Positions 38,106-64,000 of a stretch of 64,000 nt of DNA are shown one piece after another. Both the position numbers and the translations under genes were made by a program. The stretch's first letter is position 1. The number at the start of each line of letters is the position of its first letter. Source of the DNA: an uncultured Alphaproteobacteria bacterium (GTDB taxonomy: Bacteria; Pseudomonadota; Alphaproteobacteria; RF32; CAG-239); contig CAKQMD010000003.1 in the NCBI GenBank assembly GCA_934254925.1, positions 17,727-81,726 of the forward strand. The letters are read 5' to 3'. A model generated the notes under the pieces. It was not told the origin of the DNA, searched no databases, and worked only from the letters and a program-made list of their open reading frames with translations.

Positions 38106-38447
38106 ATGCAATTCTTGAAAAATAATTTTTGGACTTTCTTTTTAGTCGCAGGCTTTGCGCTGTTGGCGATGACCGGAGATGCTTCGGCTCAGGCTGCCAG
38201 TGTGATGGATACCGCTGCGCAGAAAGCCAAAGATGCCTTTGGGTCAGTCAAAACCATTCTGTTTATCGTCGGTGGTTTTGGTCTGGTCGGTGTGGCATGG
38301 GGCGCCATCTTCGGTAAAATCAACTGGAAATGGTTTGCGGCCCTGGCCGTTGGTCTGGCCATTCTGGCTGCCGCTAACTCGATCGTGAACTACGCGACCG
38401 GTAAGAGCGTCGGTTTCGAAGACTCTTTCTCGGCCGCCGGTAAATAA
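38106..38447 (+). CDS. virB2: VirB2/TrbC-type T4SS pilin (113 aa)
   Basis: Long signal peptide ending ...MTGDASA/QAAS. Two hydrophobic helices separated by a basic loop: ILFIVGGFGLVGVAWGAIFGKINWKWFAALAVGLAILAAANSIV. It is in the same transcription direction and cluster as VirB3/VirB4. Confidence 0.8.
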   Translation: MQFLKNNFWTFFLVAGFALLAMTGDASAQAASVMDTAAQKAKDAFGSVKTILFIVGGFGLVGVAWGAIFGKINWKWFAALAVGLAILAAANSIVNYATGKSVGFEDSFSAAGK

Positions 38448-38458
38448 GCGCACATGCG

Positions 38459-38497
38459 TCGGAGGGAGATTTCTCCCTCCGACCGCTTATTGCTTTT
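38459..38497 (+). terminator. strong hairpin (terminator/attenuator) directly after virB2
   Basis: Perfect 12-bp palindrome GTCGGAGGGAGA-TT-TCTCCCTCCGAC (38459-38484), followed by CGCTTATTGCTTTT. Confidence 0.6.
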
Positions 38498-38547
38498 ACA
38501 AGTTCGTCGTTTGCCGGATTTGTAAAAACAATAGGGAAACGGGAGTA

Positions 38548-39240
38548 ATGATGATGAAAAAAGGAATAATATATTTCTCTTTGCTGATGAGCATCATGCT
38601 CTTGTTTTGCAATTATAATATTGCTATGGCCATTGACGGTTTTAACAGTATAACGAGAACGTCTGTTGAGGAGAAAACCGACAGTTTTACAGTAAAGAAG
38701 ATGCAATTGGATAGTGAAGGGAATTATACAGAAAAAACTGATACCTTCTATAAATCGGAAAATCCTTATTATCAAATCCAGTTAGAGCAGGCCAACAAAG
38801 ATTCAAAAAATATTTTTGATATAGAAAAATGGAATAGCTGGATGGCTCTTTGTAAGCAAAAAGGCAACTGTAATGGATCTAGTTCAACAACAACGTCTTC
38901 TGCATCGGAAGAAAATACAAAAACGCCGGCTCCCGGCAGTTCAAACAAAACGACAAGCAATCTGGTTTTGAACGGCTGCGGAGAGGGATCGGGATTGTTC
39001 AGTGGCTTGGTCAAGACCGGGAGCAACATCTTCTTGGGTCTAAGGGATTTGATTTATGTGGTCGCCGGCTTCGGCATCATCGGCGTTGCCGTCGGCGGCT
39101 TTTTCGGAAATTTGAATTGGAAGTGGCTGGGAGCGATCATCATCGGGCTGATCGTCATTGCCTCAACCGGCGAAATCATTGCCACTGTGACGGATTGCAA
39201 ACAATTTACCTCAACCGTCATTCAGGATACTTTGAAGTAG
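38548..39240 (+). CDS. VirB2-domain protein with ~140-aa N-terminal extension (230 aa)
   Basis: Signal peptide ...CNYNIAMA/IDG, then an S/T/N-rich extension. The C-terminus LIYVVAGFGIIGVAVGGFFGNLNWKWLGAIIIGLIVIASTGEII aligns residue for residue with the VirB2 hairpin. Three consecutive ATGs (38548/51/54) follow GGGAG, so the exact start is uncertain. Confidence 0.75.
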   Translation: MMMKKGIIYFSLLMSIMLLFCNYNIAMAIDGFNSITRTSVEEKTDSFTVKKMQLDSEGNYTEKTDTFYKSENPYYQIQLEQANKDSKNIFDIEKWNSWMALCKQKGNCNGSSSTTTSSASEENTKTPAPGSSNKTTSNLVLNGCGEGSGLFSGLVKTGSNIFLGLRDLIYVVAGFGIIGVAVGGFFGNLNWKWLGAIIIGLIVIASTGEIIATVTDCKQFTSTVIQDTLK

Positions 39241-39249
39241 GAGGGCGCC

Positions 39250-42200
39250 ATGTTAAATTTTGCACGGAAAATGATGAAAAATTCAATGCTTGGCCTGCTT
39301 CTTGCCATGGTAATAAGCTCTAACTGGGCTTTTGCTCAAATCGACGTGTCGAAAATCAGAGCCGATATGCAAAATACGATTGCCGAAAATATTCGGAACG
39401 AAGAAATAGAAGCGGCAAGCGAAAAGGATAGGATCAAAGGCAAGGTTACCGGCGTTACGGTAAAAGAACCCGATATAAACAAAATGCTGGAAAACGCCGC
39501 CAAAGACATGAACAAGCAGACGCAAAAAAATCAGGACAAGGTTGTTCGGAACCAGTCTGTTGAAAAGCAAAAAGATGCGGAAGCCAAGAAAGCGGCTTAT
39601 GAAGAATTACAGAAGGCTTGCAATGATTCTCCCGATACTTGTGACGCCGAGGCTTTGGCGCAGGCAAAACAGGAAGCCGATGCCGCTGCTTCTGAATCGG
39701 CGTTATATGGAGAAGCCGTCGATTTGATTGACCACCGTTACCAAGCCGGAGATCAATATTTCTCGGATGAAGATGAATATAATGCCTATTTGCAGGAAAA
39801 CCCGATCTATGATCCCGGCAAAGAACTGCTAAGCAAGGAAACAACGCCGACTTACGTCAAAACCGGCAACAACATCTTTTCCATTCTGACGCAGCGCATC
39901 ATGCGCATTCTCTTCGGTTTGAAAAAGATTGTTTACATTTTGGCCGGTTTCGGGTTGATTGGCTTTGCCTATGCCGCCGTATTCAATAAAATCAGCTGGA
40001 AATGGTTTGCCCAGATCGCCATCGGTTTGTTCCTGGTGGCCAACATGGGACGCTTCATCGAATATTTTGTCTTCAACGGCAACACGCCGGAATCAGAGCA
40101 AAAATTAAGCTACGGCGATTATCTGCACAAAGGCTTCGGCGATCCGACGCACAGTTGGGTGGATAAGCCGGTTGATCCCAATGCCGCATACAGCGAAAAG
40201 GCCGCGGCCAACGCTCCGAGCATGAGTGAGGAAGAAGCCAAAAAAGTCGAAGAAGAGGCCGAAAAGGCCAAAACCCGGAAGTTCTGCGGCAAGACGGCCG
40301 GCGTCAGCGGGTTTAAGAACTTCACCAACTGTATCAAGGATATTACCGCAACCGGTAAAAACGCCGCCAATGCTGCCAAAACGGCCGCCCAGACCGTCAA
40401 ACAGACAGTTGCCCGCGCTGAGCTGATCGGCTCTGCCGCCAAAAACATGGCTTTAGCCGTCAAAAACGCCGAAGGCAACGGAATTCACAAGATTTTCAGC
40501 GCCACGAAAGACATTGTTTCCAGTGCCAATTATATGGTGCAGACCGGTTCTGAAATGATCAACGACGTTTACAGCGGTACATCAAGTGTTGCCAACTCTT
40601 CGCAAAATCTCGGCAAGAGTACGGATCAAATTGACGAGCTGGAAACGCTTCGCCTTTCGGGAAAGAGCACCAATGCCGTCACCGGAATTTTGTCCGGCGG
40701 CGAGAACGGTAACTTCTTTTCGAATTTACAAAACAACGCTACCAATGTGGCGACGGCGTCGCAAGATGTGAACTCTTCCCTCCAGGTTTTAGGCTCTTCC
40801 GCTTATGATATTGCGGAACTGGGAGACCAAATTTTCAAGGGTGATCAAAAGCGTCAGCAACAGATTACGCAAAACCGCATTGATCGGGAAAACCAAGTGC
40901 AAAGGGAAACGGACGCTTATGATCAAAAAGTGAAAGAGGAGTTTGAGCAACAGCAAAGAGAGGAGCGCAGTGAAAAATTCCGTCAGGAAAATACGCCCGA
41001 CAAAGTGGCCGAGCGCAGCCAGCAGGCGTTGTCTCAAGCTTCCAAAGACGTTGAAAATGCGCAAAGCGACCTGAACAATAAACAAAATATCCTGGCTGAA
41101 AACAACGCCGCTTATGAAAACCTCCAAGCAGAACTGGAGAAAGCCAAAATCGCTGCTGAAGAAGCCGCGGAAAGGGCCAAGCGCAATCCTGATGATCTTC
41201 AGGCGCAAAGAGAAGCACAAGAGGCTGCCGACAAGGTCAAACTGACTCAGTTGGAGGCAGACCAGGCCAAATTGAAGGTTGATCAGGCGGCTTCTGCCGT
41301 TGCCGATGCCCAAAAGACGCTTAACGACAAAAAAGCATATCTGAGCGAGACGTCGCAAAAAACTTATGATGACGTCATAGCCGGCGCCGCTTATGACAAA
41401 GAGCAGGCGGAAGCGGCTTCCAAGCAGGCGGCTGCCGAGCTGGAAGCTTTGGAAAAAGACCGCCAGAACCAAGAAAACAGCGTGGATCAGGCGCGCAAAG
41501 CCGCCGAAGAAGCTGAGGCCAAAGCCCGTGCTAGCGGAAAAACGGAAGATATTTTGGCTGCCGATGAAGCGCGCCGGAAACAAGCCGAAGCGGAAGAGAA
41601 GTATAATGCCTATCTGCAAGAAATTGAAAAACAAAAGCAGTTGAAATATGAGGCCGACAATAAGAAGCTTGAAGCGGAAAAAACGCTCCTTGAAGGGAAA
41701 AACAACCATCCCCTGCAAAACAAGGACAAGTCGGAAAGCGCCAAGGCTTCTGAATTGTATGACAAATACTTCAAGCCGGAAGAACCGACCAAAGGAGAAG
41801 TTCGGGAAACGCCGGTAACGCGTTCTTCGCAAAGCACGGATATAGCGCTTAAAGCCAAGGCCGAAGCAGATGAGGCTCAAGCCGAGGCGGAAAGGCTGCA
41901 AAGCGATGCCGATGACCTTGCCGCGCAAATGAGAAACAAGCAGCAAGAAACCAAGGACCTTGAAAAAGACATTAAGGCCATGAAAAAGCAGTTGAGCGCC
42001 AATCCGAATGACGCCAATACCAAACGGGCGCTGAATGCGACGGAAAAGAGACTGGGATTGCTCAACAGTGAATACAACAAGCTGTCGCATGACTACGAGA
42101 ACGTCTCTTCCCAGGCCAAAACGGCCGCTTCCAAGGCCGCTGAGCTGCAAAAACCCCTGGACGGACTGTATGACCAGGCGACAAAAGACGCCGTTGCTGC

Positions 42201-43629
42201 TGCAACTTATAACAAAGAACAGGCGCAGACCAACTATGAAAAGGCCGAAAATTCGCTGAAAGAGCTGGAAGAGCGCCGCAGCGAGGAGGAGGAGAAGGTT
42301 AATGCCGCACGGGAAAACTATCAGCGTTTGGTTGCCGAAGCGCGGCAGAAACAGGATACCGCCTCGATTATGGCCGCGGAAAAAGCGCGGACGGATCTGA
42401 ATGCGGCCGAGTTTGCCTATTCTAACTACCTCGGTGAGATTCGCAATCAAACTCAGGTAAAGCAAGAGGCGGAGCAGCAGATTTACGATGCGGACATCAA
42501 GATCTCGCAGATTGAATCGCAATTGGCCAATTGGCGTTACCAGCAGAACAGCACGCCACAAACCCGCAGCGATACGGGCAAGAGCGAAAACAAAGAGCAA
42601 AGCAAGTCGACGGACGGAGACGATAAAAAGTCTGAAACCACGACAAAAAGCCGGGAAAATGAGAGCCCGACGGCTTTGATGGGCAATGAAGGCGCCATTA
42701 GCTCCGGCAGCTCCGAAGGCAATCTCATTACGCGGAGCGGCGGCAGTGAGAGCGCGGAAACGGCCGGCGGGTCTGACGACAATGTAACGACGGGCGGAAG
42801 CTCGCAAACCGCGGGAAGCTTCGGCAGCAGACAAAGTCAGACTGGTGACGACAAAACGCCGACGATAGACAAGAGCGGTTTGTTGACGCAAAACAGCGAC
42901 GTCATCAAAACCGAAACCTTAAAAGACGGGGCATTAGTCGGTGAATCGACGGTTTACGGCGATGAAGCGACGGCGATCAATTCCACCGGCGGTGAATACA
43001 ACAGCGGCATTCGCGGCACCAACTACTCGACGGGGTCGAGATATGTCGGCGGCGGAACAGTTTACGGCACAACCGGTTCGGGGGCTTATCGCAGCTATTC
43101 CGGCAGCAGCTATGACACTTGGCGCGATCGCTCTCGCAGCCCGGCCAATATCAACAGCGGCCGTAACCTGACGGCAGAAAGCGCCGCAGCCAGAGACGCT
43201 GCCGTTCGGGCTCAGGCTGATGCCGCTCTGGCCAACCAGGCGCAGATTGAAGCCGCTGCTCGGGCTTATGCCGAAAAAGAGGCTGAGGAGGAAGAAGCCT
43301 TGGCCGCCGAAACGGAAGCCGAATACCTTCGCCGGGCGGAAGAACAGCGGTTGATTGACGAAGAAAACGCTGCTTTGGCCGCAAAGGAGGCCGGCGAAAA
43401 GAACAATCTGCAGCTTCGCGGCCGGATTACCAAGGGACGTCAGGTGATTGACGTCGGAAAAGGTGCCCCTGCCAACGACGAAGCCGCCCGAGGCGAAAAG
43501 CCGGGTGCAACCCCTGCTGCAACAACGCCGCCGCAACCGGCCAATGAAAATGCAGCGCCGACGGCCGCCCCGACGGCTGACGGAACTATTCCAGCATCCG
43601 GGCGCATCACCCGCGGCAGCCGTCGCTGA
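39250..43629 (+). CDS. giant VirB2-domain fusion protein (1459 aa): signal peptide, acidic coil, VirB2 hairpin, >1100-aa coiled-coil and low-complexity tail
   Basis: Signal ...SSNWAFA/QIDV. Residues ~225-270 (VYILAGFGLIGFAYAAVFNKISWKWFAQIAIGLFLVANMGRFIEY) are the third copy of the VirB2 hairpin, including the (K/N)(I/L)(S/N)WKW loop. The remainder is Q/E/A/K heptad-rich plus S/G/T-rich segments. A GGAGGG RBS precedes the ATG, which lies 9 nt after the previous stop. Confidence 0.8.
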   Translation: MLNFARKMMKNSMLGLLLAMVISSNWAFAQIDVSKIRADMQNTIAENIRNEEIEAASEKDRIKGKVTGVTVKEPDINKMLENAAKDMNKQTQKNQDKVVRNQSVEKQKDAEAKKAAYEELQKACNDSPDTCDAEALAQAKQEADAAASESALYGEAVDLIDHRYQAGDQYFSDEDEYNAYLQENPIYDPGKELLSKETTPTYVKTGNNIFSILTQRIMRILFGLKKIVYILAGFGLIGFAYAAVFNKISWKWFAQIAIGLFLVANMGRFIEYFVFNGNTPESEQKLSYGDYLHKGFGDPTHSWVDKPVDPNAAYSEKAAANAPSMSEEEAKKVEEEAEKAKTRKFCGKTAGVSGFKNFTNCIKDITATGKNAANAAKTAAQTVKQTVARAELIGSAAKNMALAVKNAEGNGIHKIFSATKDIVSSANYMVQTGSEMINDVYSGTSSVANSSQNLGKSTDQIDELETLRLSGKSTNAVTGILSGGENGNFFSNLQNNATNVATASQDVNSSLQVLGSSAYDIAELGDQIFKGDQKRQQQITQNRIDRENQVQRETDAYDQKVKEEFEQQQREERSEKFRQENTPDKVAERSQQALSQASKDVENAQSDLNNKQNILAENNAAYENLQAELEKAKIAAEEAAERAKRNPDDLQAQREAQEAADKVKLTQLEADQAKLKVDQAASAVADAQKTLNDKKAYLSETSQKTYDDVIAGAAYDKEQAEAASKQAAAELEALEKDRQNQENSVDQARKAAEEAEAKARASGKTEDILAADEARRKQAEAEEKYNAYLQEIEKQKQLKYEADNKKLEAEKTLLEGKNNHPLQNKDKSESAKASELYDKYFKPEEPTKGEVRETPVTRSSQSTDIALKAKAEADEAQAEAERLQSDADDLAAQMRNKQQETKDLEKDIKAMKKQLSANPNDANTKRALNATEKRLGLLNSEYNKLSHDYENVSSQAKTAASKAAELQKPLDGLYDQATKDAVAAATYNKEQAQTNYEKAENSLKELEERRSEEEEKVNAARENYQRLVAEARQKQDTASIMAAEKARTDLNAAEFAYSNYLGEIRNQTQVKQEAEQQIYDADIKISQIESQLANWRYQQNSTPQTRSDTGKSENKEQSKSTDGDDKKSETTTKSRENESPTALMGNEGAISSGSSEGNLITRSGGSESAETAGGSDDNVTTGGSSQTAGSFGSRQSQTGDDKTPTIDKSGLLTQNSDVIKTETLKDGALVGESTVYGDEATAINSTGGEYNSGIRGTNYSTGSRYVGGGTVYGTTGSGAYRSYSGSSYDTWRDRSRSPANINSGRNLTAESAAARDAAVRAQADAALANQAQIEAAARAYAEKEAEEEEALAAETEAEYLRRAEEQRLIDEENAALAAKEAGEKNNLQLRGRITKGRQVIDVGKGAPANDEAARGEKPGATPAATTPPQPANENAAPTAAPTADGTIPASGRITRGSRR

Positions 43630-43650
43630 AATTAACTTATTATTCATAAA

Positions 43651-43692: not shown

Positions 43693-43780
43693 TGCCCCGA
43701 TACTTGTTGAAAGAAGAGGGTTTGACTTGCATAAAAAAAAGATTGAGGTATCATAAACCTGCTTAAAAGAAGAGAAAATC

Positions 43781-44071
43781 ATGCGGGAAATGATCTTAAA
43801 AGCCGTGGCCAATCCGCCCAAGATTTTGTGGGGACCCTTTCTCCCCACCATGTTGAACATGGGCGTGCAGTTCCCGTTAATGTTCATGTTTCTCGGCACT
43901 TTTGACGTCAACCCGCTGTTTTTTATGGCGTCTTTGGTCGCCGTTCACTGTTTTGTCATCTTTTTAGGTGTCAAGGAACCGCATATTTCGGCCATGATCC
44001 AGGCCTACGGCCAGACAAACCGCACTACAACCAACCTGTATAAAGTAAAGGGGAAAAAATTTGCACCCTGA
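43781..44071 (+). CDS. virB3: VirB3/TrbD-like T4SS inner-membrane protein
   Basis: 96 aa with two hydrophobic segments and an N-terminal KAVANPPKILWGPF block. It is immediately upstream of VirB4 and overlaps it by 11 nt. Confidence 0.75.
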   Translation: MREMILKAVANPPKILWGPFLPTMLNMGVQFPLMFMFLGTFDVNPLFFMASLVAVHCFVIFLGVKEPHISAMIQAYGQTNRTTTNLYKVKGKKFAP

Positions 44072-46568: not shown

Positions 46569-47675
46569 ATGAAAAAATATCAGAATGTCGGCGTCAGCGT
46601 TCTTTCCGCGGGGATTTTGGCCTTGTTAGCCGCTGTTCCGGCCCGGGCGTTTATTCCCATCCCGGTGGTCGACGTCGAGAGTACGCGCAACAGCATTCAG
46701 ACGACCCTGACGTCCATCAAGGAAACCAAGTTTATTACCGATGCCACCAAAGTGGCAAATGAAACTAGTGCCACTATCGGCAAAGCCAAAAAAACAATGA
46801 GCGAATATGCGGCGGACGAGGTCAAAAAAGCCCAAGAACTCAAAAAGAAAGTCGAAAAACGCAAAAAACAGATTGAAGCCTACCAAAAACAAGCCAAAGA
46901 ATACCAAAGTTTGGTTGAGGAAAAAGTCGATGAAGCCAAACAAACTGTTAACAGCGCCAAAGAGACCTATAACCAAGCTCAAGACACTTATAATCAAGCC
47001 AAAGAAACGGCCTCTGCCGTGACGGAAGCCGCCAGCGATAAGCTTAATGCCGCAAAGGAAAAAGTCTCTCCGTCCGGCAATGTTCCTGCCGCAGCGGAGC
47101 AAACCGCTTCCGATACCGCACCGACAACTCCGTCCACGACGCGACGCACCTTTGGCGTGCCTTATTCTGCCGTAATGACGCCTTATCCAGCTTATGCCAC
47201 GGCTGGTCACAGCGAAACTCTGGCTTTTGCGGATATTCTGAGCAGTGACGGCGGCTACAGCGAAGACGGCGACGGGATTCCCGTTTTCCCGATGGAACTG
47301 GCCTTGGAATGCGGGCTAAGCAGCGATGATGCCAAAAAAGACACCGCCATAACCGATTGCCTCGATAAGATTTGCGAAAAATACAAGGGAAACCAGCAAG
47401 AACGTTCGACGGCAATGACGTTGATGGCCAAAATCGTCAAAAGCCAGGCGGCTTACAACATTGCCCGTGCCATTAAGATTCAGGCCGATGCCGCCGCTTT
47501 TGAAAAGAATGTTCAGGAAGGAATAGACAATGCGGCACAAAAAGCCACGACCAGCCGTGACGATACTTCTGCAACCACGGCGGCAATTACGGCCGGTGCT
47601 GATTTGCTTAATCAGCTGAATATGTTGCAAAGCGGCATTATGGCTCTGGAAGCGATGGACGGCTACTGTAAGTAA
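46569..47675 (+). CDS. VirB5/TrbJ-like minor pilus/adhesin component (368 aa)
   Basis: Signal peptide ...AAVPARA/F followed directly by IPIPVVDVESTRNSIQTTLTSIKE. This is the (G)IPVxD...Q start typical of mature VirB5/TrbJ. A long helical region follows. It sits right after VirB4. Confidence 0.6.
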   Translation: MKKYQNVGVSVLSAGILALLAAVPARAFIPIPVVDVESTRNSIQTTLTSIKETKFITDATKVANETSATIGKAKKTMSEYAADEVKKAQELKKKVEKRKKQIEAYQKQAKEYQSLVEEKVDEAKQTVNSAKETYNQAQDTYNQAKETASAVTEAASDKLNAAKEKVSPSGNVPAAAEQTASDTAPTTPSTTRRTFGVPYSAVMTPYPAYATAGHSETLAFADILSSDGGYSEDGDGIPVFPMELALECGLSSDDAKKDTAITDCLDKICEKYKGNQQERSTAMTLMAKIVKSQAAYNIARAIKIQADAAAFEKNVQEGIDNAAQKATTSRDDTSATTAAITAGADLLNQLNMLQSGIMALEAMDGYCK

Positions 47676-55225: not shown

Positions 55226-55954
55226 ATGGTCAACGAGCTGGAGGGGAACAACACTTCTCAAAAATTAATCGGCGGGCAGGGACGGCGCGTCCAGTCGCGT
55301 TCGACCTCCTCTGACGTGTTCGTGGCTAATGTCGGGGAAAAGCGTTATCTTTGGACGGCGCGTGCTTTTGCCGTCATTACCGCCATCAGCTTGTGCTGCA
55401 ATCTTGTTCTGATTTTGGCGCTGTATCAGGTTTTGCCATTGTATCGCATTGAGCCTTTCTTGTTGACTTTTCAGAACCGTTCCGAGCAAGTTTATAACAT
55501 TCAGCCGCTGCAGGGTGGTCTTAAAAATGAAAAAGCCGTCACCGAGGTTTTTATCCGCGAATACGTCTTGCTGCGCAGCACTTTTGACCGTGATGTTGCG
55601 GAAATGGAAACTCGTTGGATGCCCAACGGACCGATTCAGGAAATGTCTTCGCCCAAAGTGTACAGCGATTTTCTTGAAAATACCGCAAAAAAAGCCTTGG
55701 CTGCCATTCGTAGCCGCGGTCTGATGCGCGAAGTGAAAATTCTTTCGGTTAACGAATTAAGTCCGGGATTGTGGCAAGTGGAATATGAAACCCGCGACAT
55801 GTATCCCGATTCGTCGCGGCCGGAGGTCAACTATTGGACGGCGTCGCTGCGGGTGGCCTACCGTCGCAAAAGCGTCAGATACGGCGACAGGCTCAAAAAT
55901 CCGGTCGGCTTTACCGTAACGGCATATTCGTTAACCTATAATAAGGTTGAGTAA
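55226..55954 (+). CDS. virB8: VirB8-like protein, copy 2
   Basis: Same architecture as copy 1: TM helix AFAVITAISLCCNLVLILALY, then EVFIREYVLLRST, YWTASLRVAY and NPVGFTVTAYS. Confidence 0.85.
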   Translation: MVNELEGNNTSQKLIGGQGRRVQSRSTSSDVFVANVGEKRYLWTARAFAVITAISLCCNLVLILALYQVLPLYRIEPFLLTFQNRSEQVYNIQPLQGGLKNEKAVTEVFIREYVLLRSTFDRDVAEMETRWMPNGPIQEMSSPKVYSDFLENTAKKALAAIRSRGLMREVKILSVNELSPGLWQVEYETRDMYPDSSRPEVNYWTASLRVAYRRKSVRYGDRLKNPVGFTVTAYSLTYNKVE

Positions 55955-55973
55955 GTGGGAGATATTTAAAATC

Positions 55974-57581
55974 ATGGCTCGTCATCATTTCAATACAATC
56001 CTGTTGGCTGTCGCTATTCTGGTGGCTTTCGTCCCGGGGATTCGGGCACAGGTGGACCAACAGGCCATGGATGCCAGTGCCGATCAGGCGCAGGGTAATT
56101 ACGCTCCCATGAACATGGGCTATGCCGGGTTCAACTCTTTGGGCATGACGCAGGCCGCTTGGCTTGATCCGATGCAAAATCTCGGCGAGGGACAGTCGCG
56201 TCCGGCTTATTCCCGTTATTATTGGTCGCCGGATTTGGTCTTGCCTATCCGGTTGCGCGAAGGGATGATTACCTTGGTTAACTTTCCCGAATGGGAGATG
56301 ATTGAAGATATTTATATCGGGGACAACGCGACTTTTGACGGTCAGATTTCAGGTCCGAACACTTTGCTGCTTTATCCGCGCAAAGGTGCCAATGTCGGCG
56401 TGGACACCAACGTGATCGTGTTCGGTCGCTCCGGCAACCGCTATGTCTTTTACGTCAAGTCGGAAGCCGTTAACACCGAAAGGCTGACCAACTCGATTAT
56501 TGATATTGATGTGATCGGCGGTCAAAACGGTGTCGGCGGCGCAGGCGGCATGGCGTCTCTGCGCGGCGGTGCCAACGGCGGAACGACCAGCGGCGGAAAA
56601 TCCGTTGACGCGACTTACACCCGACGTTTCCAAAAATCGGACTGGTTGAAGGAAATCCCTGTTGATCCTTCGAAGTTTCGTTTTGACATTGAGGTCTATG
56701 TTCCCAATCCCGATGATGTGGTGATTGCACCCGAACGCGTTTGGAGAGATGATATTTTTACTTATATCGACCTTGGTAAAAAAGCTTTGAACATGATGCA
56801 GCGTCCGGTTGTCAGTATGATCGTCGAACGTGTTGAAGTTCCCGTCGGTTTCCGCACCAAGGGACCGGACAACCGCCTGATCATCGTCGAAGGTGTCGGA
56901 GATATGGTCTTGCGCAACGGCAAGCGGATCATTTGTCTGAAGCTGCGTCGTTCCGGCGCCAGTGGTTTGGAATATGCCATTGATGCCTCTGACAATTTGC
57001 CTCCGACTTGGGATGTCCCGGCCCCGCTCCCCGATCAAAACACCAGAGCTTTCGGCAATCAGCCCCAAGGAATGACAACGCCGATCCCTCAACAGGGTGC
57101 GCAGATTCCCGGACAATATGACATTCAGGTCGGACAATCTCAGGTTATTGTGCCACAATATAAAGGGGTGGCTGGCGGCAACAACGGCGTTAACGTCAAT
57201 TATCAAGGAGCCGCGGCGAATTTTGATTATTCAAAGATGCAGCGGATCAGCAATTCCGGCAACTATGACGCTAATAACCCCTATAAGCAGTTTGGCTATG
57301 GGTCCGGCTTCAGCGACGGCAATTCCAATATTTCGATTGAGTTGGGCACGGACGCCAACGTCGGCAATCTTGAAAACCTCTGGAACGACCTGTCGTCTCA
57401 ATATGGGCAAGACCTTGAGCGCTATGAACCGTTTTATTCGGTAGACGCGCCGGCGGATGGACAAGGCAAAGAGCTGTTTCATTTGCGCGTCGGTCCGGTG
57501 AAAACCTTGGAAGAAGGCGATCGCGTCTGCAGTAAACTCGGACGCAACGGAATATTCTGCAGTGTGGTAAGGACCCAATGA
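55974..57581 (+). CDS. virB9: VirB9/TrbG/CagX-like protein fused to a C-terminal SPOR-like domain
   Basis: I prefer ATG 55974, which gives the signal MARHHFNTILLAVAILVAFVPGIRA/Q. VirB9 N-domain: IRLREGMITLVNFPEWEMIEDIYIGDNATFDG...NVIVFGRSGNRYVFYVKS. C-domain: VWRDDIFTYIDLG...RPVVSMIVERVEVPVGFR. A Q/G/N-rich linker follows. The last ~75 aa (ISIELGTDANVGNLENLWNDL...FHLRVGPVKTLEEGDRVCSKLGRNGIFCSVVR) fit the SPOR pattern. Confidence 0.8.
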   Translation: MARHHFNTILLAVAILVAFVPGIRAQVDQQAMDASADQAQGNYAPMNMGYAGFNSLGMTQAAWLDPMQNLGEGQSRPAYSRYYWSPDLVLPIRLREGMITLVNFPEWEMIEDIYIGDNATFDGQISGPNTLLLYPRKGANVGVDTNVIVFGRSGNRYVFYVKSEAVNTERLTNSIIDIDVIGGQNGVGGAGGMASLRGGANGGTTSGGKSVDATYTRRFQKSDWLKEIPVDPSKFRFDIEVYVPNPDDVVIAPERVWRDDIFTYIDLGKKALNMMQRPVVSMIVERVEVPVGFRTKGPDNRLIIVEGVGDMVLRNGKRIICLKLRRSGASGLEYAIDASDNLPPTWDVPAPLPDQNTRAFGNQPQGMTTPIPQQGAQIPGQYDIQVGQSQVIVPQYKGVAGGNNGVNVNYQGAAANFDYSKMQRISNSGNYDANNPYKQFGYGSGFSDGNSNISIELGTDANVGNLENLWNDLSSQYGQDLERYEPFYSVDAPADGQGKELFHLRVGPVKTLEEGDRVCSKLGRNGIFCSVVRTQ

Positions 57582-60500
57582 GCAAAGAAGTCTTAACACA
57601 TTCCGAGAAATATATTCGTAAGACCAATCGTATCATTTTGACGATTGGTATTACTTCTTTAATTATCTTTATTTTCGGTGTTATTCTTCTGATCAAGAGT
57701 AACCGTTCCGGTGAGCAGTACGAAGAGCCGGTTTTCACGGACAATGCCGATGTTTTGAATATGGAGAGCGCTTCGCCGCTCAGTCCGAGCATTGAGTTTT
57801 CTCCGGTGGACGACAGTGAAATTCCGCTGACAACCACGCCGGATCCCGTTTTGATGGGGCAAGTCGTCCTCGGGACGGATGCCAAAAACGTTTTGACTTT
57901 GGGAACAAACGGCAAAGCCGCTTTGCGAATTGTTTCGGTAGAGCTGGCGGATCCTCCGGCAGACGGTTTTAGTTTTGAGGATGGCTGTTCGGGACGCAAT
58001 TTGAACGGTGACGAAACCTGTAACGTCACCATGTCTTGGACTCCCGTCATTCCCGGAAACGTCCAAAATAACTTTATCATCACCTGGCATGAACTGAACC
58101 TCAGCCGAGAAAACGCCAAAGCGGCCAAAGTCCCGGTAACCGGCAATGCCATCCGTAAGGAAGACTGCAATTTCTGTGAGACCGCACCGACGCCTTCGGC
58201 GGAAAATGCAGCGCCGACACAAGCAGTTCGCTTGGCTATCGGTCCAAACGGTGAAATTCTCGGAACTATTGACGAAGACGGTTATGTCCGCGATGCCAAC
58301 GGTAATGTTATCGGGCGTTTGAACGGCGCCGGACTGGTCTTGGATAAAGACGGCAATATCACCGGCGTCGGCGACAACCGCCGCGTGGTTTATGATGAGT
58401 TCGGCAATATCATCGGCTATGTCAATCCCGACGGAACGGTGGTGGATGCCGACGGCAACGTCATCGGCCGCGTGCTGCCCGACGGAACGGTTGTCGACCA
58501 AAACGGCAACGTCATCGGTAAGGCTGTTGAAACAGGTTTTGTTTATGATAAGGATGGAAATATTATCGGCCGCGTGCTGCCTGACGGAACGGTTGTCGAC
58601 ATGAACGGCAACACGATCGGACGTTTGAATGCCAACGGCGAAGTCGTGGACATGAACGGTAATGTTATCGGTTATGTTACCAAACAGGGAAAAGTGGCCA
58701 TTGACGACAACGGCAATATGCTTGGTGTGGTTATGCCCGACGGCAGCGTCGTGGATCAAAACGGCAATACTGTCGGCCAGTTGAACGAAAACGGCGAAGT
58801 CGTCGGAAAGGCGGCCATCGGCACGGTCGGCGCCAGCCGCCGCTTAGCTTATGATGCCGACGGTAACGTCATTGGCTATATCGACGAGAATGGCAATGTC
58901 GTAGATTTTAACGGTAACGTCATTGGCCGCATGTTGGCTGACGGCACACTGGTGGATCAGAACGGCAATGTCATCGGCAAGGCCGGCGACGCCGCCAATT
59001 TGGTTTATGACGCCACCGGCAATGTTATTGGCTATGTCGGAAAGGATGGCAAGGTTTATGACTTTCTGGGCAATGAAATCGGCTATGTTGACGAAAACGG
59101 CAATATTATCGGCAATGACGGAAAAGTGCTGGGCTCTTTGGTCCCGCTGAACATGATTCCGATCACGCCGCAGGGCAAAATTTTGGGAACGGTCAAAAAC
59201 AACGGAACGATCGAAAATGCCGAAAAGCAGGTGGTCGGGCGTGTTTTGGCTAACGGCTTGGTTAAAGACCCCTCCGGATCACAGGTGATTGCCAAGATGG
59301 TGCGCGGCGGGTTTGTCGTTGGTTACGGTTGTAAACAGATCGGCTATCTCGACAAAGACGGCAAAGTCAAAAAAGGCAATGAAGAGACCAATTATAAAGT
59401 TTTGCCTGAAGGCATCATTGTTGCGCCGAACGGAGAATATGTCGGCGAAGTCGTCAAAACCGGCAACGTTTATGATCGCAACTGCATGTTTCTCGGTGTT
59501 GTGGACACCAACGGCATTGTTAAGGACAGGGCCAATCGCTACGTCGGCTGCGTTAACCCGGACGGCTCGGTGTTGGATGAAAAAGGCAATCATATCGGCA
59601 GCGTCATCAAATCCGGCGCGGCAATAGATTATGACGGCAATTATCTCGGCAAAGTCGCAGCGGACGGCCTGATTGTCAATGATGCCAGCTTGCCGGTCGG
59701 CTGCGTCGGGCCTTATGGCGATGTTTTTAACAAGAGCGGTGCTTATGTCGGTCGCCTTGTCGGTGAAAAATATGCCTTTGACTTGGACGGCAACTTCCTC
59801 AATCCGGTGGACGATCATGCAGAGGTTAAGATTTACGGCCGCCGTCCTGCCCGTCTGACGCCCAATAACCTGGTGATTGACGAGAAAAATCAAATTATCG
59901 GTACGGCGCTTGACGCCAAGTCCGTCATTTATGACGCGTCGGGAAAAATGATCGGCCGACTTTTCCCCGACGGGAAAGTCTATAATGAAAAAGGCGTGGC
60001 CCAGGGTGACATCAAGGGCGACGGCTTTAGCTTTTACAACCGCCGCCTCGGCGTTGTGTCGCCGCAGGGCGAAGTTGTTGACATGAGCGGAAAAATCATC
60101 GGCCGCGCCAATTATGACGGCTATGTTTTGAATCGTTTCGGGGATAATTTGGGCAAAATCAATCCCAAAGGCGACCTGATCGACCGCAAAGGCGAATTCA
60201 AAGGCGGAATTGTCACGCGCGGAGCGGCTGTCGGTTATGACGGTTCTTACATCGGTTACGGCGTTTCTGACGGCAGGGTCGTCGGATTAGACGGTGCCGA
60301 GCATGGTCGCGTCAGTTTTGACGGCAAAGTCATCGACGGCGACAATAAGGTCATCGGCGAAATCATTCCCGAAAACATTGTGACCGACATCGGAGGCCGC
60401 TACGCCGGCCGGGTCAATTCCCTCGGTGATGTTTATGACTTGAAGAACGACGTGATTACCGCCATTTTGCCGGGCGGCGCCACGGAACTGAACTTGAGCC

Positions 60501-60997
60501 TGCTCAAACGCGGAGCCGTCGTTGATTTCGGCGGCAACGTCATTGGCAGCGTTATGCCCGACGGAACGGTGATTGATGCGGAAAACATCGTGGTCGGCCG
60601 CGTTTTAAGCGACGGCAGTGTCATCAATCTGGCCGGAAAACTGATCGGCGAGGTTGTCGAGGGCGATATTGTCATTGATAATGCCGACAAGGTCGTCGGT
60701 TATGTCATGCTGGACGGAACAATTGTGGCCAAAGACGGCAATATTCTGGGTAGAACCTTGTCAAGCGGATTGGCAATTGACGCAAATGATAATATCATAG
60801 GAAAAATATTTAAGATCGGCGCCACCATTCTGGCCAACGACGGTTCCTACAAAGGACGCCTGGCTCCGGATGGCAAAGTTCTTGATGTTGAAGGCCGCGA
60901 AATCGGCAATGTCAAAAACAACGGCTCATTTATCGATCTGGATAAAAAAGTTTCCGGCTATGTTTTAAATGAAGTAGCCAAAAACCGGAGGAACTAA
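57578..60997 (+). CDS. giant bitopic repeat protein (1139 aa): cytoplasmic tail, TM helix, Ig-like beta-sandwich, ~50 short G-N-V-I-G repeats
   Basis: ATGA overlap with virB9. TM helix ILTIGITSLIIFIFGVILLI. Residues ~95-185 (VVLGTDAKNVLTLGTNGKAALRIVSVELAD...FSFEDGCSGRNLNGDETCNVTMSWTPVIPG) follow the ASH/choice-of-anchor-D-like beta-sandwich pattern. The rest is repeats such as PDGTVVDQNGNVIGKAVETGFVYDKDGNIIGRVL. Confidence 0.8.
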   Translation: MSKEVLTHSEKYIRKTNRIILTIGITSLIIFIFGVILLIKSNRSGEQYEEPVFTDNADVLNMESASPLSPSIEFSPVDDSEIPLTTTPDPVLMGQVVLGTDAKNVLTLGTNGKAALRIVSVELADPPADGFSFEDGCSGRNLNGDETCNVTMSWTPVIPGNVQNNFIITWHELNLSRENAKAAKVPVTGNAIRKEDCNFCETAPTPSAENAAPTQAVRLAIGPNGEILGTIDEDGYVRDANGNVIGRLNGAGLVLDKDGNITGVGDNRRVVYDEFGNIIGYVNPDGTVVDADGNVIGRVLPDGTVVDQNGNVIGKAVETGFVYDKDGNIIGRVLPDGTVVDMNGNTIGRLNANGEVVDMNGNVIGYVTKQGKVAIDDNGNMLGVVMPDGSVVDQNGNTVGQLNENGEVVGKAAIGTVGASRRLAYDADGNVIGYIDENGNVVDFNGNVIGRMLADGTLVDQNGNVIGKAGDAANLVYDATGNVIGYVGKDGKVYDFLGNEIGYVDENGNIIGNDGKVLGSLVPLNMIPITPQGKILGTVKNNGTIENAEKQVVGRVLANGLVKDPSGSQVIAKMVRGGFVVGYGCKQIGYLDKDGKVKKGNEETNYKVLPEGIIVAPNGEYVGEVVKTGNVYDRNCMFLGVVDTNGIVKDRANRYVGCVNPDGSVLDEKGNHIGSVIKSGAAIDYDGNYLGKVAADGLIVNDASLPVGCVGPYGDVFNKSGAYVGRLVGEKYAFDLDGNFLNPVDDHAEVKIYGRRPARLTPNNLVIDEKNQIIGTALDAKSVIYDASGKMIGRLFPDGKVYNEKGVAQGDIKGDGFSFYNRRLGVVSPQGEVVDMSGKIIGRANYDGYVLNRFGDNLGKINPKGDLIDRKGEFKGGIVTRGAAVGYDGSYIGYGVSDGRVVGLDGAEHGRVSFDGKVIDGDNKVIGEIIPENIVTDIGGRYAGRVNSLGDVYDLKNDVITAILPGGATELNLSLLKRGAVVDFGGNVIGSVMPDGTVIDAENIVVGRVLSDGSVINLAGKLIGEVVEGDIVIDNADKVVGYVMLDGTIVAKDGNILGRTLSSGLAIDANDNIIGKIFKIGATILANDGSYKGRLAPDGKVLDVEGREIGNVKNNGSFIDLDKKVSGYVLNEVAKNRRN
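58223..60970 (+). repeat. in-frame tandem coding repeats (about 17-19 codons per unit, about 50 units by manual count)
   Basis: Recurrent consensus roughly [DN]-G-x-V-[VI]-D-x-x-G-N-[VI]-I-G-x-[VL]. The 5' units are near-identical at DNA level. For example, the 36-nt stretch ATCGGCCGCGTGCTGCC[C/T]GACGGAACGGTTGTCGAC occurs at 58463-58498 and 58565-58600. Confidence 0.85.
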
Positions 60998-61000
60998 ACG

Positions 61001-64000
61001 TTGACAAAGGCCAAAAACATCATTTTCAAGATGCTGAAAACCGCGTTTTATACTGCGGTTATGGCCTTGTTGCCGCTGTTTTCGCTTTCGGCGCAGGAAA
61101 TTACCGCCATTGATTTTAACGGCGATATCTTAGGCAAAGTCATCCCCGACGGAAAAGTGGTGGGCTTCAACAATCAGCTGATCGGCAATGTGACGGCAGA
61201 CAGTCTGATTTTGAACTTTGACGGCGATCTCATCGGCGGCGTCGTGCCGCAAGGTGTGGCCATCGGCAATGACAATCAGTTGCTGGGAAAAGTCAACAAT
61301 GACGGTTCCGTGCGCATAGCTTCGGGAAAGGTTGTCGGTAAGGTCCTGCCCAATGGCTTGGTTGTAGATGATTATTTTAATATTATCGGCGCAGTTTTGT
61401 TTCCCGGTCTGGTCTATTCGGACGAGGGAAAAACCGTCGGCCGCCTGACCGGTGACGGCTTGTATACGGATTTGAAAGGCCAACAAATCGGCTTTATTTC
61501 GCCGGATGGCTATGCTTATCGCCGCGTGGGAACGGATTATGTTCTGGACGGCCGTCTGATTTCCTCTAAAATGGTTGTTTCCTTAAATGGTGACTTTATC
61601 GGTTCCGTTGTTCCCGGTGGTGAGGTTTCGGATTTTGAATCTCGGATCATCGGCCGCATCAAAGCCAACGGATTCGCCTATGATGAAAATAACCGCATCA
61701 TCGGTCGCATTGTGCGCAGCGGCTACGCTTTTGACAATTTCGGCCTGTACTTGGGTTTTGTGACCTATAACGGCGAAGTCGTTAATAAAGACAGCCTTGT
61801 CGGGCGTCAACGCGCCGATGGCCGTATCGTCAGTCCCGACGGTGCTTTGATCGGTTTTACCGTCGATATTGCGGCCACCGCGACAGATTTGAACGGCCGT
61901 TACCTTGGGCGTCTGATTCCCGGCGGTGATTTGGCCCGTGCCCGGGAGATGACCGCTCTGGTCGGTGCGCGCGGGTTGATTCACGATTCTTCCGGCAAAA
62001 CCGTCGGCCGATTGGTAATAACCGGTCCTTATTTTGATGAAAAAGGCGCTCTGAAACTGCATGCCTTGAGCAATGGAAGTGCTGTCGCCTTATCTGGGAG
62101 CCCGCTTGGCTTTGTCAAAGGTGGCGAAGCTTATGATTTTTCGGGCAAAGCTTTGGCTGCCGCAATGGGACAAAGACTGGTCATCGGAGAAAATAATCAG
62201 ATTTTGGGATTGCCGGGGATCAATGGTGTTTTGGCGGCTTCGGAGGACAAAAGACGTGTCTCTCCTTACGGTTACGTTTATTCGGCGGAAGGAAGCCTGA
62301 GCGGACGCAGCCTTTCGTTGGCGCCGTTATACGGCCAAAACGGTTTGCTTTTGGCCGAAGTGGGACTCAACGGCGAGGTAATCGGCAGCGGCGGCCAAAA
62401 TCTCGGACGATTGACGCAATCCGGTGTAGCCTTTGACGAACGTAATCAGTTTTTGGGAAAGAATATTCCCGATTTTTATGCCTTGGATGCTATGGGAACG
62501 TCTTTGGGAAATCTGTCCGAAACCAATCTGGTCCTGGATAATAACTTGGCCGTCAGCGGCCGTCTGTTGCCCGGGCATGCCGTCATTCCGTCGGACGGGG
62601 GCAATCAGACGATGCTGATGCCCGAGATCGGGCGTAGTTACAATCGGCCTTTGGCGCTGAATTTTAACGGCGACCTCTTGGGTTATGTTGGTGTTGACGG
62701 AACGGTTAAAGATTTTTCCGGCGCCGTCATCGCCAAAGTTGTCGATAATGGTCTGCTGCTGGACAATTATAATAATCTCAGCGGCTTTACGGCCTCTTAT
62801 ACCACCGTTGTCAACGATACCTGCAGTGTTCAGGGAACGATAACGCCTCGCGGTGAGGTCAGCAATTATCGCGGTGTTTACATGGGGCGCCTGCTCGGCA
62901 ACGGACAAGTCGTCGCCGGTAATGACCTGATTTCGGGTTTTGCCGTTGATTTGCAGCCGGTGATTGACAATAACGGCAGCTTGCTGGGAGCGGTAACGGC
63001 AGACGGCCGGGTTTTGAATATGGCGGACCAAGATCTCGGTTGTATTGATTATCGTGGTCAGTTACGCAATCCAGACGGTGCGGTTGTCGGCAAGATTGTC
63101 GAAACCGATCCCGTGATCGACTTTAGCGGCAATATTATTGGCCGCATTCAGGCCGACGGTAAATTTATTAATGAAGAAAGCGCTGCCATCGGCTATCTCC
63201 AGCCAAACGACAATGTCAATTCCTCCACCGGAAATCCATTGGGACAATTGTTCAAATATCGCGTGGCTTTTGACAACGACAACAAATATATGGGACGCGT
63301 ACTGCGCAACGCAATAGTCGTAGATCGGGAAAACAAGGAAGTCGGTCGGGTCGATTTTGATGGTTTCGTTCTTCGCGGCGGCCAAAAGATAGGTTACGCC
63401 CTGTATGACATGTATCTTTATAACGGCGAAGGCAAAGCGGTCGGCTATCTCTCTTCGGAAGGGGATGTCTTGGGCTTTTCCAATCAAAAACTCGGAATGT
63501 TAGATCGCGGTTTTATGTTGGATCGTGCCGGCAGCGTGATTGCCCGCGGCAACCGTGACTTTTATATTCGGGATAAGGAGCACCGCGTTGTCGGTTACTT
63601 GAATCTCAACGGCGACGTGGTTGATGCGGCCGGAAAACTTGTCGGAACCTTGGGCGAAGCCGGAGAAATCAAAAACGGCGAAGGGACGCTTTTGGCCGTT
63701 GCCACACCGTTGCAATATTATTCCAAACTGGCTTCAACCGCCAGCTATCCGCTGGTTGTGGATGCTGACGGCAAGACGGTTGGCCGCTTGGATGAAAATG
63801 GTAACATCATTGATAAAAATAATAAAATCATCGGATTTAGAGACAAGGCCGGCCGCTTGGTCGACAGTTTAAACAATTTGATCGGCCGTTTTCTGAACAA
63901 TGATCCAGTTTACGATCAAGACGGCAACGTCATTGGCACGGTCAAGGCTGACGGAACGGTAGTCGATGCCAATGGCAAAGTCATCGGTCGTTTGGATGAA
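61001..64000 (+). CDS. second giant repeat protein, secreted, at least 1000 aa (runs off right edge)
   Basis: My translation of the + frame from TTG 61001 (GGAGGAA 8 nt upstream; alternative ATG 61031) has no stop codon before the window end. Signal peptide ...MLKTAFYTAVMALLPLFSLSA/QE, then degenerate copies of the same repeat (DFNGDILGKVIPDGKVVGFNNQLIGNV..., ...DQDGNVIGTVKADGTVVDANGKVIGRL). It is absent from the ORF track because it lacks a stop. Confidence 0.8.
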   Translation, partial: MTKAKNIIFKMLKTAFYTAVMALLPLFSLSAQEITAIDFNGDILGKVIPDGKVVGFNNQLIGNVTADSLILNFDGDLIGGVVPQGVAIGNDNQLLGKVNNDGSVRIASGKVVGKVLPNGLVVDDYFNIIGAVLFPGLVYSDEGKTVGRLTGDGLYTDLKGQQIGFISPDGYAYRRVGTDYVLDGRLISSKMVVSLNGDFIGSVVPGGEVSDFESRIIGRIKANGFAYDENNRIIGRIVRSGYAFDNFGLYLGFVTYNGEVVNKDSLVGRQRADGRIVSPDGALIGFTVDIAATATDLNGRYLGRLIPGGDLARAREMTALVGARGLIHDSSGKTVGRLVITGPYFDEKGALKLHALSNGSAVALSGSPLGFVKGGEAYDFSGKALAAAMGQRLVIGENNQILGLPGINGVLAASEDKRRVSPYGYVYSAEGSLSGRSLSLAPLYGQNGLLLAEVGLNGEVIGSGGQNLGRLTQSGVAFDERNQFLGKNIPDFYALDAMGTSLGNLSETNLVLDNNLAVSGRLLPGHAVIPSDGGNQTMLMPEIGRSYNRPLALNFNGDLLGYVGVDGTVKDFSGAVIAKVVDNGLLLDNYNNLSGFTASYTTVVNDTCSVQGTITPRGEVSNYRGVYMGRLLGNGQVVAGNDLISGFAVDLQPVIDNNGSLLGAVTADGRVLNMADQDLGCIDYRGQLRNPDGAVVGKIVETDPVIDFSGNIIGRIQADGKFINEESAAIGYLQPNDNVNSSTGNPLGQLFKYRVAFDNDNKYMGRVLRNAIVVDRENKEVGRVDFDGFVLRGGQKIGYALYDMYLYNGEGKAVGYLSSEGDVLGFSNQKLGMLDRGFMLDRAGSVIARGNRDFYIRDKEHRVVGYLNLNGDVVDAAGKLVGTLGEAGEIKNGEGTLLAVATPLQYYSKLASTASYPLVVDADGKTVGRLDENGNIIDKNNKIIGFRDKAGRLVDSLNNLIGRFLNNDPVYDQDGNVIGTVKADGTVVDANGKVIGRLDE

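Follow-up and report, generated by a model that had tools for sequence, protein, structure and literature searches.

The DNA analyzed here, a 64,000-nucleotide window of contig CAKQMD010000003.1 (GenBank assembly GCA_934254925.1) from an uncultured alphaproteobacterium, carries a VirB-type type IV secretion system (T4SS) in which no VirB6 could be found. The system is of type IVA, resembling the mating-pair-formation T (MPF-T) class; it is chromosomal and inherited vertically, and its genes form a single tightly packed operon that occupies the plus strand from position 38106 to the end of the window. This operon is conserved in hundreds of species of gut Alphaproteobacteria. It pairs a conserved core, comprising VirB3, VirB4, VirB7, both VirB8 copies, VirB9 with its SPOR domain, VirB10, and VirB11, with a fast-evolving periplasmic or surface module made up of three VirB2-type pilins (two of them with long extensions), three or four VirB5 paralogues, and p1318, a giant secreted protein located in the position where VirB6 would be expected. 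The genes are given below with their lengths in amino acids (aa) and the principal evidence for each; the last gene, and the end of the one before it, lie beyond the window and were read from longer contigs.

38106 to 38447, plus strand: VirB2 pilin, 113 aa (Pfam TrbC, 6.7e-10)
38548 to 39240, plus strand: VirB2 paralogue b, 230 aa (TrbC, 5.6e-4 at aa 160 to 213, below the gathering cutoff)
39250 to 43629, plus strand: VirB2 paralogue c, 1459 aa (TrbC, 1.3e-3 at aa 220 to 264, below the gathering cutoff)
43781 to 44071, plus strand: VirB3, 96 aa (BLAST, 1.5e-8 against the annotated VirB3 of Microvirga plasmid pMVF16-3)
44061 to 46493, plus strand: VirB4 ATPase, 810 aa (Pfam CagE_TrbE_VirB, 4.2e-13; TIGR00929, 3.8e-114)
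46569 to 47675, plus strand: p368, VirB5-like, mature N terminus IPIPVVDVES (family hidden Markov model [HMM] against the Erythrobacter plasmid VirB5, 8.6e-9)
47689 to 48450, plus strand: p253, secreted coiled-coil protein without transmembrane (TM) segment (singleton in clustering)
48443 to 48901, plus strand: p152, VirB5-like (signal-peptide-stripped family HMM against Sphingosinicella VirB5, 1.3e-7 over almost the full length)
48905 to 50182, plus strand: p425, VirB5-like (stripped family HMM against VirB5 of Sphingosinicella, 6.6e-6; Erythrobacter, 1.5e-5; Paracaedimonas, 3.7e-4)
50179 to 54135, plus strand: p1318, secreted, 1318 aa, in the VirB6 position
54152 to 54910, plus strand: VirB8 copy a (Pfam VirB8, 3.7e-16)
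55015 to 55203, plus strand: VirB7 lipoprotein, 62 aa (lipobox LTGC), between the two VirB8 genes
55226 to 55954, plus strand: VirB8 copy b (Pfam VirB8, 2.5e-27)
55974 to 57581, plus strand: VirB9 with a C-terminal SPOR domain (Pfam CagX, 2.3e-11; SPOR, 1.3e-5)
57578 to 60997, plus strand: VirB10-N, 1139 aa (Pfam Bflower_2, 3.6e-74 in 10 stretches)
61031 to 64000, continuing to about 65533, plus strand: VirB10-C, a 1500-aa open reading frame (ORF) cut by the window edge
about 65546 to 66514 in window-equivalent coordinates, plus strand: VirB11, 322 aa (T2SSE, 7.8e-22)

The interval between VirB4 and VirB8 contains five genes, encoding proteins of 368, 253, 152, 425, and 1318 aa. All five carry a signal peptide and no further hydrophobic segment (19-residue Kyte-Doolittle mean of ≤1.1 outside the signal peptide), in agreement with an initial annotation of this DNA, which had described the last four as TM-free secreted proteins. 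Neither the operon nor any other part of the window contained an ORF with the four to six hydrophobic helices of a polytopic VirB6/TrbL. The corresponding interval of 55 related species accommodates three to seven ORFs; beyond residue 30, these show one sporadic hydrophobic segment at most, and none of them encodes a polytopic VirB6. Likewise, tblastn returned no VirB6 match in the window together with 166 related loci (3.1 Mb). The lack of VirB6 between VirB5 and VirB8 noted in the initial annotation thus holds here and in the 55 related species, where the same slot layout recurs.

The slot ORFs clustered into four families, p368 (89 members), p1318 (62), p425 (50), and p152 (42). Since the HMM and hhalign searches matched them to VirB5 of plasmids, three of these four families, p368, p152, and p425, are diverged VirB5 paralogues. 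Family HMMs built without signal peptides were compared with plasmid VirB5 at Z = 1000. Under these conditions the p368 family matched Erythrobacter VirB5 at 4.2e-5, and hhalign gave 83.5% probability compared with 0.1% for the reversed control, so the earlier description of p368 as VirB5/TrbJ-like is upheld at the level of the family profile. The Erythrobacter VirB5 itself passes the cutoff of Pfam PF07996 (6.8e-7), and a direct Pfam VirB5 match was obtained for none of p368, p152, and p425. For p152, the hhalign probability against plasmid VirB5 was 95.5% with the signal peptide, 56.6% without it, and 0.1% for the reversed control; p425 aligned to the N terminus of p368 at 92.9%. Overall, the hhalign links of these three families had probabilities of 57 to 93%, with reversed controls at about 1% or less, and in the stripped-HMM matches N- and C-terminal segments followed the same order along both proteins. 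The remaining small protein, p253, was matched by none of the slot family HMMs, and BLAST beyond contigs of the same genome found partial matches in three loci only, each covering at most 60% of the protein.

The largest slot protein, p1318, consists of an N-terminal module, a globular domain D1 (aa 320 to 545), a coiled coil (aa 546 to 860), a second, Cys-containing globular domain D2 (aa 915 to 1172), and a helical tail ending in PYCAxY. D1 and D2 are about 35% identical across orthologues and the variable coiled coil 16%; an alignment of 56 orthologues contained 29 invariant residues and 4 conserved Cys. No Pfam, NCBIfam, or PDB-sequence match was found for p1318, and comparison of the p1318 and p368 family profiles with PDB sequences yielded coiled-coil noise, with TrwJ (VirB5) at an E value of 0.12. 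Apparent hhalign links between p1318 and VirB5, p152, or the slot proteins of the plasmids (81 to 89%) were lost when signal peptides were removed, and were dismissed as signal-peptide artifacts. A homologue search with the full-length query recovered only p1318 itself, and two domain profiles gave two and four proteins, coiled-coil words having probably swamped the candidate stage; when 1.84 billion representatives were searched exhaustively with HMMER, 250 clusters matched, nearly all of 1200 to 1850 aa with the domain at the C terminus. As far as these searches reach, the p1318 family is restricted to the lineage, without a detectable relative. It is conserved in both the CAG-495 and CAG:977 groups, and in CAG:977-like genomes it takes the form of two genes without the coiled coil and D2. 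Of the four slot proteins that had been regarded as novel, p152 and p425 therefore fall into VirB5 families, while p1318 has no relative and p253 belongs to no family.

Two VirB2-like genes directly downstream of the VirB2 pilin gene (38548 to 39240 and 39250 to 43629) had been overlooked in the initial annotation. VirB2 is 42% identical to VirB2 of the Microvirga plasmid and has the motif GFG..G.A.G..FG..NWKW in common with paralogue b, in which a signal peptide and a 140-aa extension precede a C-terminal pilin hairpin; across 67 loci, conservation of paralogue b is limited to that hairpin. In paralogue c, a signal peptide and about 200 aa lead into a pilin-like TM hairpin; the roughly 1,200 aa after it are coiled coil and of low complexity. 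The hairpin and the next approximately 250 aa are conserved in 40 to 67 loci, the remainder is not, and counterparts in seven other species range from 245 to 1801 aa. The NWKW/SWKW hairpin motif is recognizable in the sequence of both paralogues. An antisense ORF at 40789 to 42891 (minus strand, 700 aa, 14 apparent TM segments) was considered as a hidden VirB6 and rejected, as it is the reverse strand of this E/K/A-rich coiled-coil gene.

VirB9 is followed by two giant repeat proteins, as previously reported, and their repeats were identified as Bflower_2, a β-flower fold first described in 2023 without known function (PMC10584680). The proposal that novel proteins fill the VirB10 slot was not sustained: the second repeat protein is a VirB10 with an N-terminal extension, an outcome that the initial annotation had itself named as refuting its reading. 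Contigs from several samples that encode an identical 1139-aa protein and extend 10 kb further allowed VirB10-C to be read at full length, revealing a signal peptide, eight Bflower_2 matches (3.9e-64), and then a TrbI/VirB10 domain (1.5e-37 at aa 1192 to 1382) with 32% identity to Microvirga VirB10 (2e-39). The ORF, which ends in this TrbI barrel, runs to about 1.5 kb beyond the window and is followed by VirB11, which is 40% identical to plasmid VirB11. Because both were found on the longer contigs, their reported absence is an artifact of the window edge; the statement that no VirB10 barrel or VirB11 is present is correct within the window and fails just beyond it.

In the first repeat protein, VirB10-N, a short cytoplasmic tail is followed by a TM anchor, a Cys-containing Ig-like domain, and about 10 β-flower modules. 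Its N-terminal layout, which includes the motif C..G..L..C.V...P..PG, resembles that of the N terminus of Microvirga VirB10; sequence similarity to the N termini of plasmid VirB10 proteins is weak, with a Smith-Waterman z of 5.8 against Microvirga and of 1.6 and 0.6 against the two remaining plasmids. The gene and its N terminus are conserved in more than 70 loci. In dozens of species the order is VirB9, a protein of 1100 to 1370 aa, a protein of 1420 to 1890 aa, and VirB11; the gap between the two VirB10 halves is 1 to 4 nt, the reading frames usually differ, and both the anchor sequence of VirB10-N and the mature N terminus EITAIDFNGD of VirB10-C are conserved. Because arrangement, gap, and termini are conserved and the frames usually differ, the split is real. 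In the window itself (60995 to 61033) both halves lie in one frame with a single TAA stop between them; a sequencing error or stop-codon readthrough was rejected as its source, given the conservation in dozens of species, mostly in different frames. VirB10 is thus composed of an inner-membrane-anchored half and a Sec-exported half with the outer-membrane barrel, each about ten β-flower modules longer. The repeats account for about 1,000 aa per half and about 18 to 20 modules in both genes together. They align end to end across species (50 to 56% conserved), and no DNA-level tandem repeats were detected in the two genes; from this comparison they look structural, not recombination-prone as in CagY.

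The other components confirmed the initial annotation. VirB2, VirB3, VirB4, VirB7, both VirB8 copies, and VirB9 were each supported at the positions it had given by Pfam, NCBIfam, BLAST, or lipobox evidence, and the VirB4 Walker A motif GPTGQGKTT and the VirB8 motifs NPLGFTVTRYS and NPVGFTVTAYS are present in the sequence. The Pfam search gave no match for VirB3. The 62-aa lipoprotein was assigned to VirB7 because it is homologous to the small lipoprotein encoded at the same position in related plasmids (41% identity and 4.8e-12 for that of the Erythrobacter plasmid, with a PCAC motif in common). Across species, the VirB9 core and SPOR tail are each about 75 to 77% conserved and the linker 46%; VirB9 of the Erythrobacter plasmid has a homologous C-terminal tail. 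The type IVA set therefore comprises VirB4, VirB2 with VirB3, VirB5, a VirB7/VirB9/VirB10 outer-membrane core, and VirB8 with VirB11. Start and stop codons overlap at 44061/44071 (11 nt, between the end of VirB3 and the start of VirB4), 48443/48450, 50179/50182, and 57578/57581, all as previously listed. No promoter or terminator signals exceeded the shuffled background.

Conservation falls from the engine to the slot. Identity to the window protein across species was 89% for VirB11, 85% for VirB4, about 75% for the TrbI barrel, 71% for VirB3, a median of about 61% for VirB2, about 58% for VirB8 copy a, about 28% for p1318, and about 25% for p368 and p425; for p152 and p253, BLAST found hardly any match beyond contigs of the same genome. 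In close species pairs, dN/dS was 0.00 to 0.02 for VirB4, 0.01 to 0.05 for VirB8 copy a, 0.05 to 0.18 for the slot genes, and 0.05 to 0.10 for p1318. The slot genes are thus functional and under purifying selection, with amino acids changing at 5 to 15 times the engine rate. They belong to the same operon, as the initial annotation had stated.

The VirB4 search identified 164 relatives in species-representative genomes, of which the best 80 were 80 to 90% identical, and the VirB11 search identified 332 related genome loci, of which the best 80 were 88 to 92% identical. The metagenome-assembled genomes (MAGs) concerned are labeled CAG:495, 'Candidatus Scatocola', or 'Azospirillum sp.' and come from human, chicken, ruminant, and mouse sources. 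Loci L147, L221, L226, L171, and L180 belong to MAGs labeled Lachnospiraceae, Limosilactobacillus, Lactobacillaceae, Mycobacterium, or Bacteroidales; these non-alphaproteobacterial labels probably reflect mis-binning or mislabeling in the public records. The flanks of the operon are chromosomal, encoding the housekeeping proteins PBP1A, PolA, and GyrB, a porin, and a flagellin, and the scan of the flank proteins detected no integrase, relaxase, or other mobile-element domains.

The closest annotated VirB4 proteins (35 to 39% identity) are encoded on plasmids of Microvirga sp. VF16 (pMVF16-3), Erythrobacter aureus YH-07, and Sphingosinicella sp. BN140058 (p1). In these plasmids the genes follow the order MobA/MobL, DnaB, VirB2, VirB3, VirB4, VirB5, a soluble secreted protein of 420 to 520 aa, VirB7, VirB8, VirB9, VirB10, VirB11, and VirD4, and the Sphingosinicella relaxase is typed MOBQ. 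Gene order, the PCAC motif of VirB7, the SPOR-like tail of VirB9, the Cys-containing Ig-like N terminus of VirB10, and a slot without a polytopic VirB6 are common to the window system and all three plasmids. The plasmids differ in carrying a relaxase, a DnaB-like helicase, and VirD4, and they have single VirB2, VirB5, and VirB8 genes and an unsplit VirB10 of 530 to 590 aa without β-flower repeats. The gene order thus matches that of a plasmid-borne alphaproteobacterial T4SS clade, and since this clade shares the missing VirB6, the backbone is not unique to the organism.

No homology could be detected between the plasmid slot proteins and p1318. The Erythrobacter slot protein (L088 23348-24709, 453 aa) seems to be annotated with a truncated start; in a relative with 93% identity (L171 13279-14838), the ORF is 519 aa long and clearly encodes a signal peptide. 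Within 15 to 20 kb on either side of VirB4 of Erythrobacter and Sphingosinicella, ORFs with at least three TM segments occurred only antisense to or across annotated genes. In Microvirga, the slot contains a 228-aa protein with three TM segments and no assigned family; some 15 kb downstream there is a transporter annotated as VUT-family. A normal VirB6 (Pfam TrbL, 1.1e-6) is encoded by the Paracaedimonas plasmid, a more distant relative (31% identity). Because the plasmid sisters share it, the missing VirB6 appears to be a feature of the clade and not of one genome.

The DNA-transfer module was absent from the regions searched. Queries with plasmid VirD4, MobA/MobL, DnaB, and the plasmid slot proteins gave no tblastn match in the window and the 166 related loci, and VirB1 was not found in the T4SS neighborhood. 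The earlier report that VirD4, a relaxase, and VirB1 are missing holds for this neighborhood. A VirD4-profile scan of the genome collection identified 62 loci; as a positive control, VirD4 was recovered in four of six sister-lineage MAGs (VirB4 54 to 56% identical), and none of the 62 loci lay in CAG-495 or CAG:977 MAGs when contig accession prefixes were compared by eye. The pattern prefilter could miss a divergent copy, and the scan is good evidence, not proof, that VirD4 is absent from these MAGs.

In the sister gut MAGs (L173/L299, L182/L263, L206/L269; VirB4 54 to 56% identical), VirB3-VirB4 stands alone among housekeeping genes, and on the sister-lineage contig CAKQHZ010000001.1 (648 kb) a solo virD4 lies by recF-like and pheS/pheT-like genes, more than 200 kb from VirB3-VirB4. 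In CAG:977-like genomes (L175 9195-17235, L193 9223-17453; VirB4 62% identical), the operon runs from VirB2, VirB3, and VirB4 through the slot genes, which encode four or five secreted proteins, each with no hydrophobic segment or a single N-terminal one, and is then followed directly by ATP synthase genes; VirB8 to VirB11 must lie elsewhere in these genomes.

The T4SS operon has a type IVb pilus cluster and unusually long flagellins as its neighbors. The type IVb cluster (22093 to 37774, minus strand) is complete and divergent from the T4SS operon, and it includes TcpQ, a secretin, a PilO-like protein, a T2SSE ATPase, T2SSF, a second small T2SSE ATPase, five tandem bundlin/PilS-type pilin paralogues (24679 to 28236), and two large proteins without Pfam match (31006 to 32490 and 36065 to 37774). 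Flagellins with large central inserts occur on both sides, one of 624 aa (12592 to 14463, minus strand) and one of 687 aa directly after VirB11, outside the window (locus L001 19103-21166); the latter is present at that position in only 2 of 80 loci. A gene cluster at 17999 to 20881 (minus strand) encodes a PP2C phosphatase, a VWA-domain protein, and a Ser/Thr protein kinase that has three TM segments at its C terminus.

The most likely role of the system would be that of a contact or adhesion fiber like Bartonella Trw, a reading in which about half of our confidence is placed; contact or adhesion rather than conjugation, as already suggested, gives the best fit. A plasmid-type T4SS backbone with relaxase and VirD4 would have become a fixed chromosomal organelle of the gut lineage, losing its DNA-transfer module (VirD4 and relaxase) and then elaborating its periplasmic and surface parts. 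VirB4 and VirB11 would power the assembly of a pilus-like fiber made of VirB2 paralogues, the VirB5 paralogues and p1318 may cap or decorate it, and the fiber would mediate contact with or adhesion to host surfaces or other cells, as in Bartonella Trw. The β-flower arrays could provide an enlarged periplasmic scaffold, with the SPOR domain pinning the outer-membrane complex to peptidoglycan. The role of the VirB6 platform may have passed to the slot proteins or the pilin fusions, or be filled by a gene elsewhere in the genome; candidates for VirB6-less assembly are p1318, by virtue of its VirB6 position and its conservation in CAG-495 and CAG:977, and the pilin fusions.

Several observations count against such a fiber. 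The neighboring type IVb pilus cluster, with its five pilin paralogues, could already supply adhesion, and the Sec signal peptides on all slot proteins fit Ptl-like two-step secretion equally well. Gene-wide dN/dS in the slot genes is far below 1, and no diversifying selection was shown. AlphaFold2 models were of low confidence (mean predicted local distance difference test score of 56.2 for p368 from a single sequence and 42.8 for the C-terminal part of p1318 from five sequences), the predictions being too poor to assign a structural role; Foldseek with the p368 model found no PDB match with an E value of <1. Finally, T4SS genes are scattered in the sister lineages, and a VirD4 or VirB6 gene could lie elsewhere in the genome, beyond the loci that were scanned.

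Two-step secretion as in Bordetella Ptl or Brucella VirB, with Sec-exported p253, p152, p425, and p1318 as effector or toxin substrates, is considered unlikely. It draws on the lack of a detected VirD4, on the presence in every slot protein of a signal peptide without a membrane anchor, on the fast evolution of these proteins, as is often seen in secreted effectors, and on the description of this route for VirD4-less systems (PMC12857230). However, three of the slot families are homologues of VirB5, that is, of structural tip or stalk subunits, and all four are syntenic and genus-wide, unlike variable effector repertoires; moreover, Ptl has no VirB5, whereas the window system multiplies it. 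It is also improbable that the operon belongs to an ordinary, complete T4SS that translocates cytoplasmic effectors or DNA, with VirB6 and perhaps VirD4 encoded elsewhere as in Rickettsiales. The scattered genes of the sister lineages, with a solo virD4 next to recF and pheST, the CAG:977-like operon that is already split after the slot genes, and the restriction of the searches to loci rather than whole MAGs would all accommodate it, but the VirD4 scan found none in CAG-495 or CAG:977 MAGs despite its positive controls, the Erythrobacter and Sphingosinicella transfer regions likewise lack, within 15 to 20 kb of VirB4, a credible ORF with at least three TM segments, and Pfam TrbL was able to detect VirB6 in the next relative out, the Paracaedimonas plasmid. 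A DNA-uptake or DNA-release system like ComB or that of the gonococcal genetic island (GGI) would agree with a chromosomal locus in which no VirD4 was found, yet it is very improbable: ComB lacks VirB5 and VirB11 (PMC12857230), both of which are present here, the locus contains no DNA-processing genes, and neither ComB nor the GGI has anything comparable to the elaborate, variable secreted module.

To our knowledge, VirB6 forms the inner-membrane and stalk platform in every studied T4SS; in the model of the R388 system, VirB5 and VirB2 assemble on this platform. VirB6 has been called highly conserved among all T4SSs (PMC12857230). That the whole clade, the gut chromosomal systems together with their relaxase- and VirD4-bearing plasmid sisters, works without any VirB6 homologue is a tentative proposal, possible rather than probable. 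If true, the platform would be built from soluble VirB5-like paralogues, a p1318-type protein, or pilin fusions, and would represent a second architectural solution for pilus or channel assembly. A widespread system belonging to the core of a lineage, with sister plasmid systems whose complete transfer regions, relaxase and VirD4 included, show no VirB6, would test how essential the VirB6 platform is. In the literature searched, no description of an RF32, CAG-495, or Scatocola T4SS was found, nor were the VirB5 expansion, pilins carrying coiled-coil fusions of more than 1,000 aa, or a two-gene β-flower VirB10 found described. As the hosts are common, uncultured gut Alphaproteobacteria of humans and animals, a fast-evolving secreted module on a conserved T4SS is a plausible determinant of contact with the host or with other microbes.

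The closest functional parallel is Bartonella Trw, a VirD4-less system in which VirB2 and VirB5 are each present in several copies of variable sequence, thought to make variant adhesive pili (PMC12857230). Like the window system, it is chromosomal and alphaproteobacterial, and it derives from a conjugative ancestor, as is proposed here. The window system has the same traits, in that no VirD4 was found and three VirB2-like and three or four VirB5-like genes are present, with 25 to 61% identity between species whose VirB4 is 85% identical. Its paralogues are ancient families, unlike those of Trw, which are recent tandem duplicates. Trw also keeps VirB6 (TrwI), amplified along with VirB5 and VirB7, and we know of no giant VirB10 or pilin fusions in it.

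The Cag system of Helicobacter pylori is likewise an expanded type IVA system with additional system-specific periplasmic and surface proteins, and its VirB10 homologue CagY has a very large repeat region before the C-terminal barrel. A VirB10 homologue with a giant repeat region is present here too, although the type of repeat and the split differ: CagY is one polypeptide with recombining DNA repeats. Cag also has VirB6 (CagW) and VirD4 (Cag-beta). Bordetella Ptl retains VirB6 (PtlD); as described in PMC12857230, it has neither VirD4 nor VirB5, and its substrates reach the periplasm via Sec. The window system departs from this in multiplying VirB5. The Rickettsiales vir homologue (rvh) system, in turn, lacks VirB5, has multiplied its polytopic 'extended' VirB6, and has kept VirD4. 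PMC2653234 and PMC7648143 describe rvh as chromosomal and alphaproteobacterial; its VirB8 is duplicated, some members have VirB2 paralogues, and giant, atypical proteins occupy the VirB6 position. Relative to rvh, the arrangement in the window is reversed, with VirB5 multiplied and no VirB6 in the locus.

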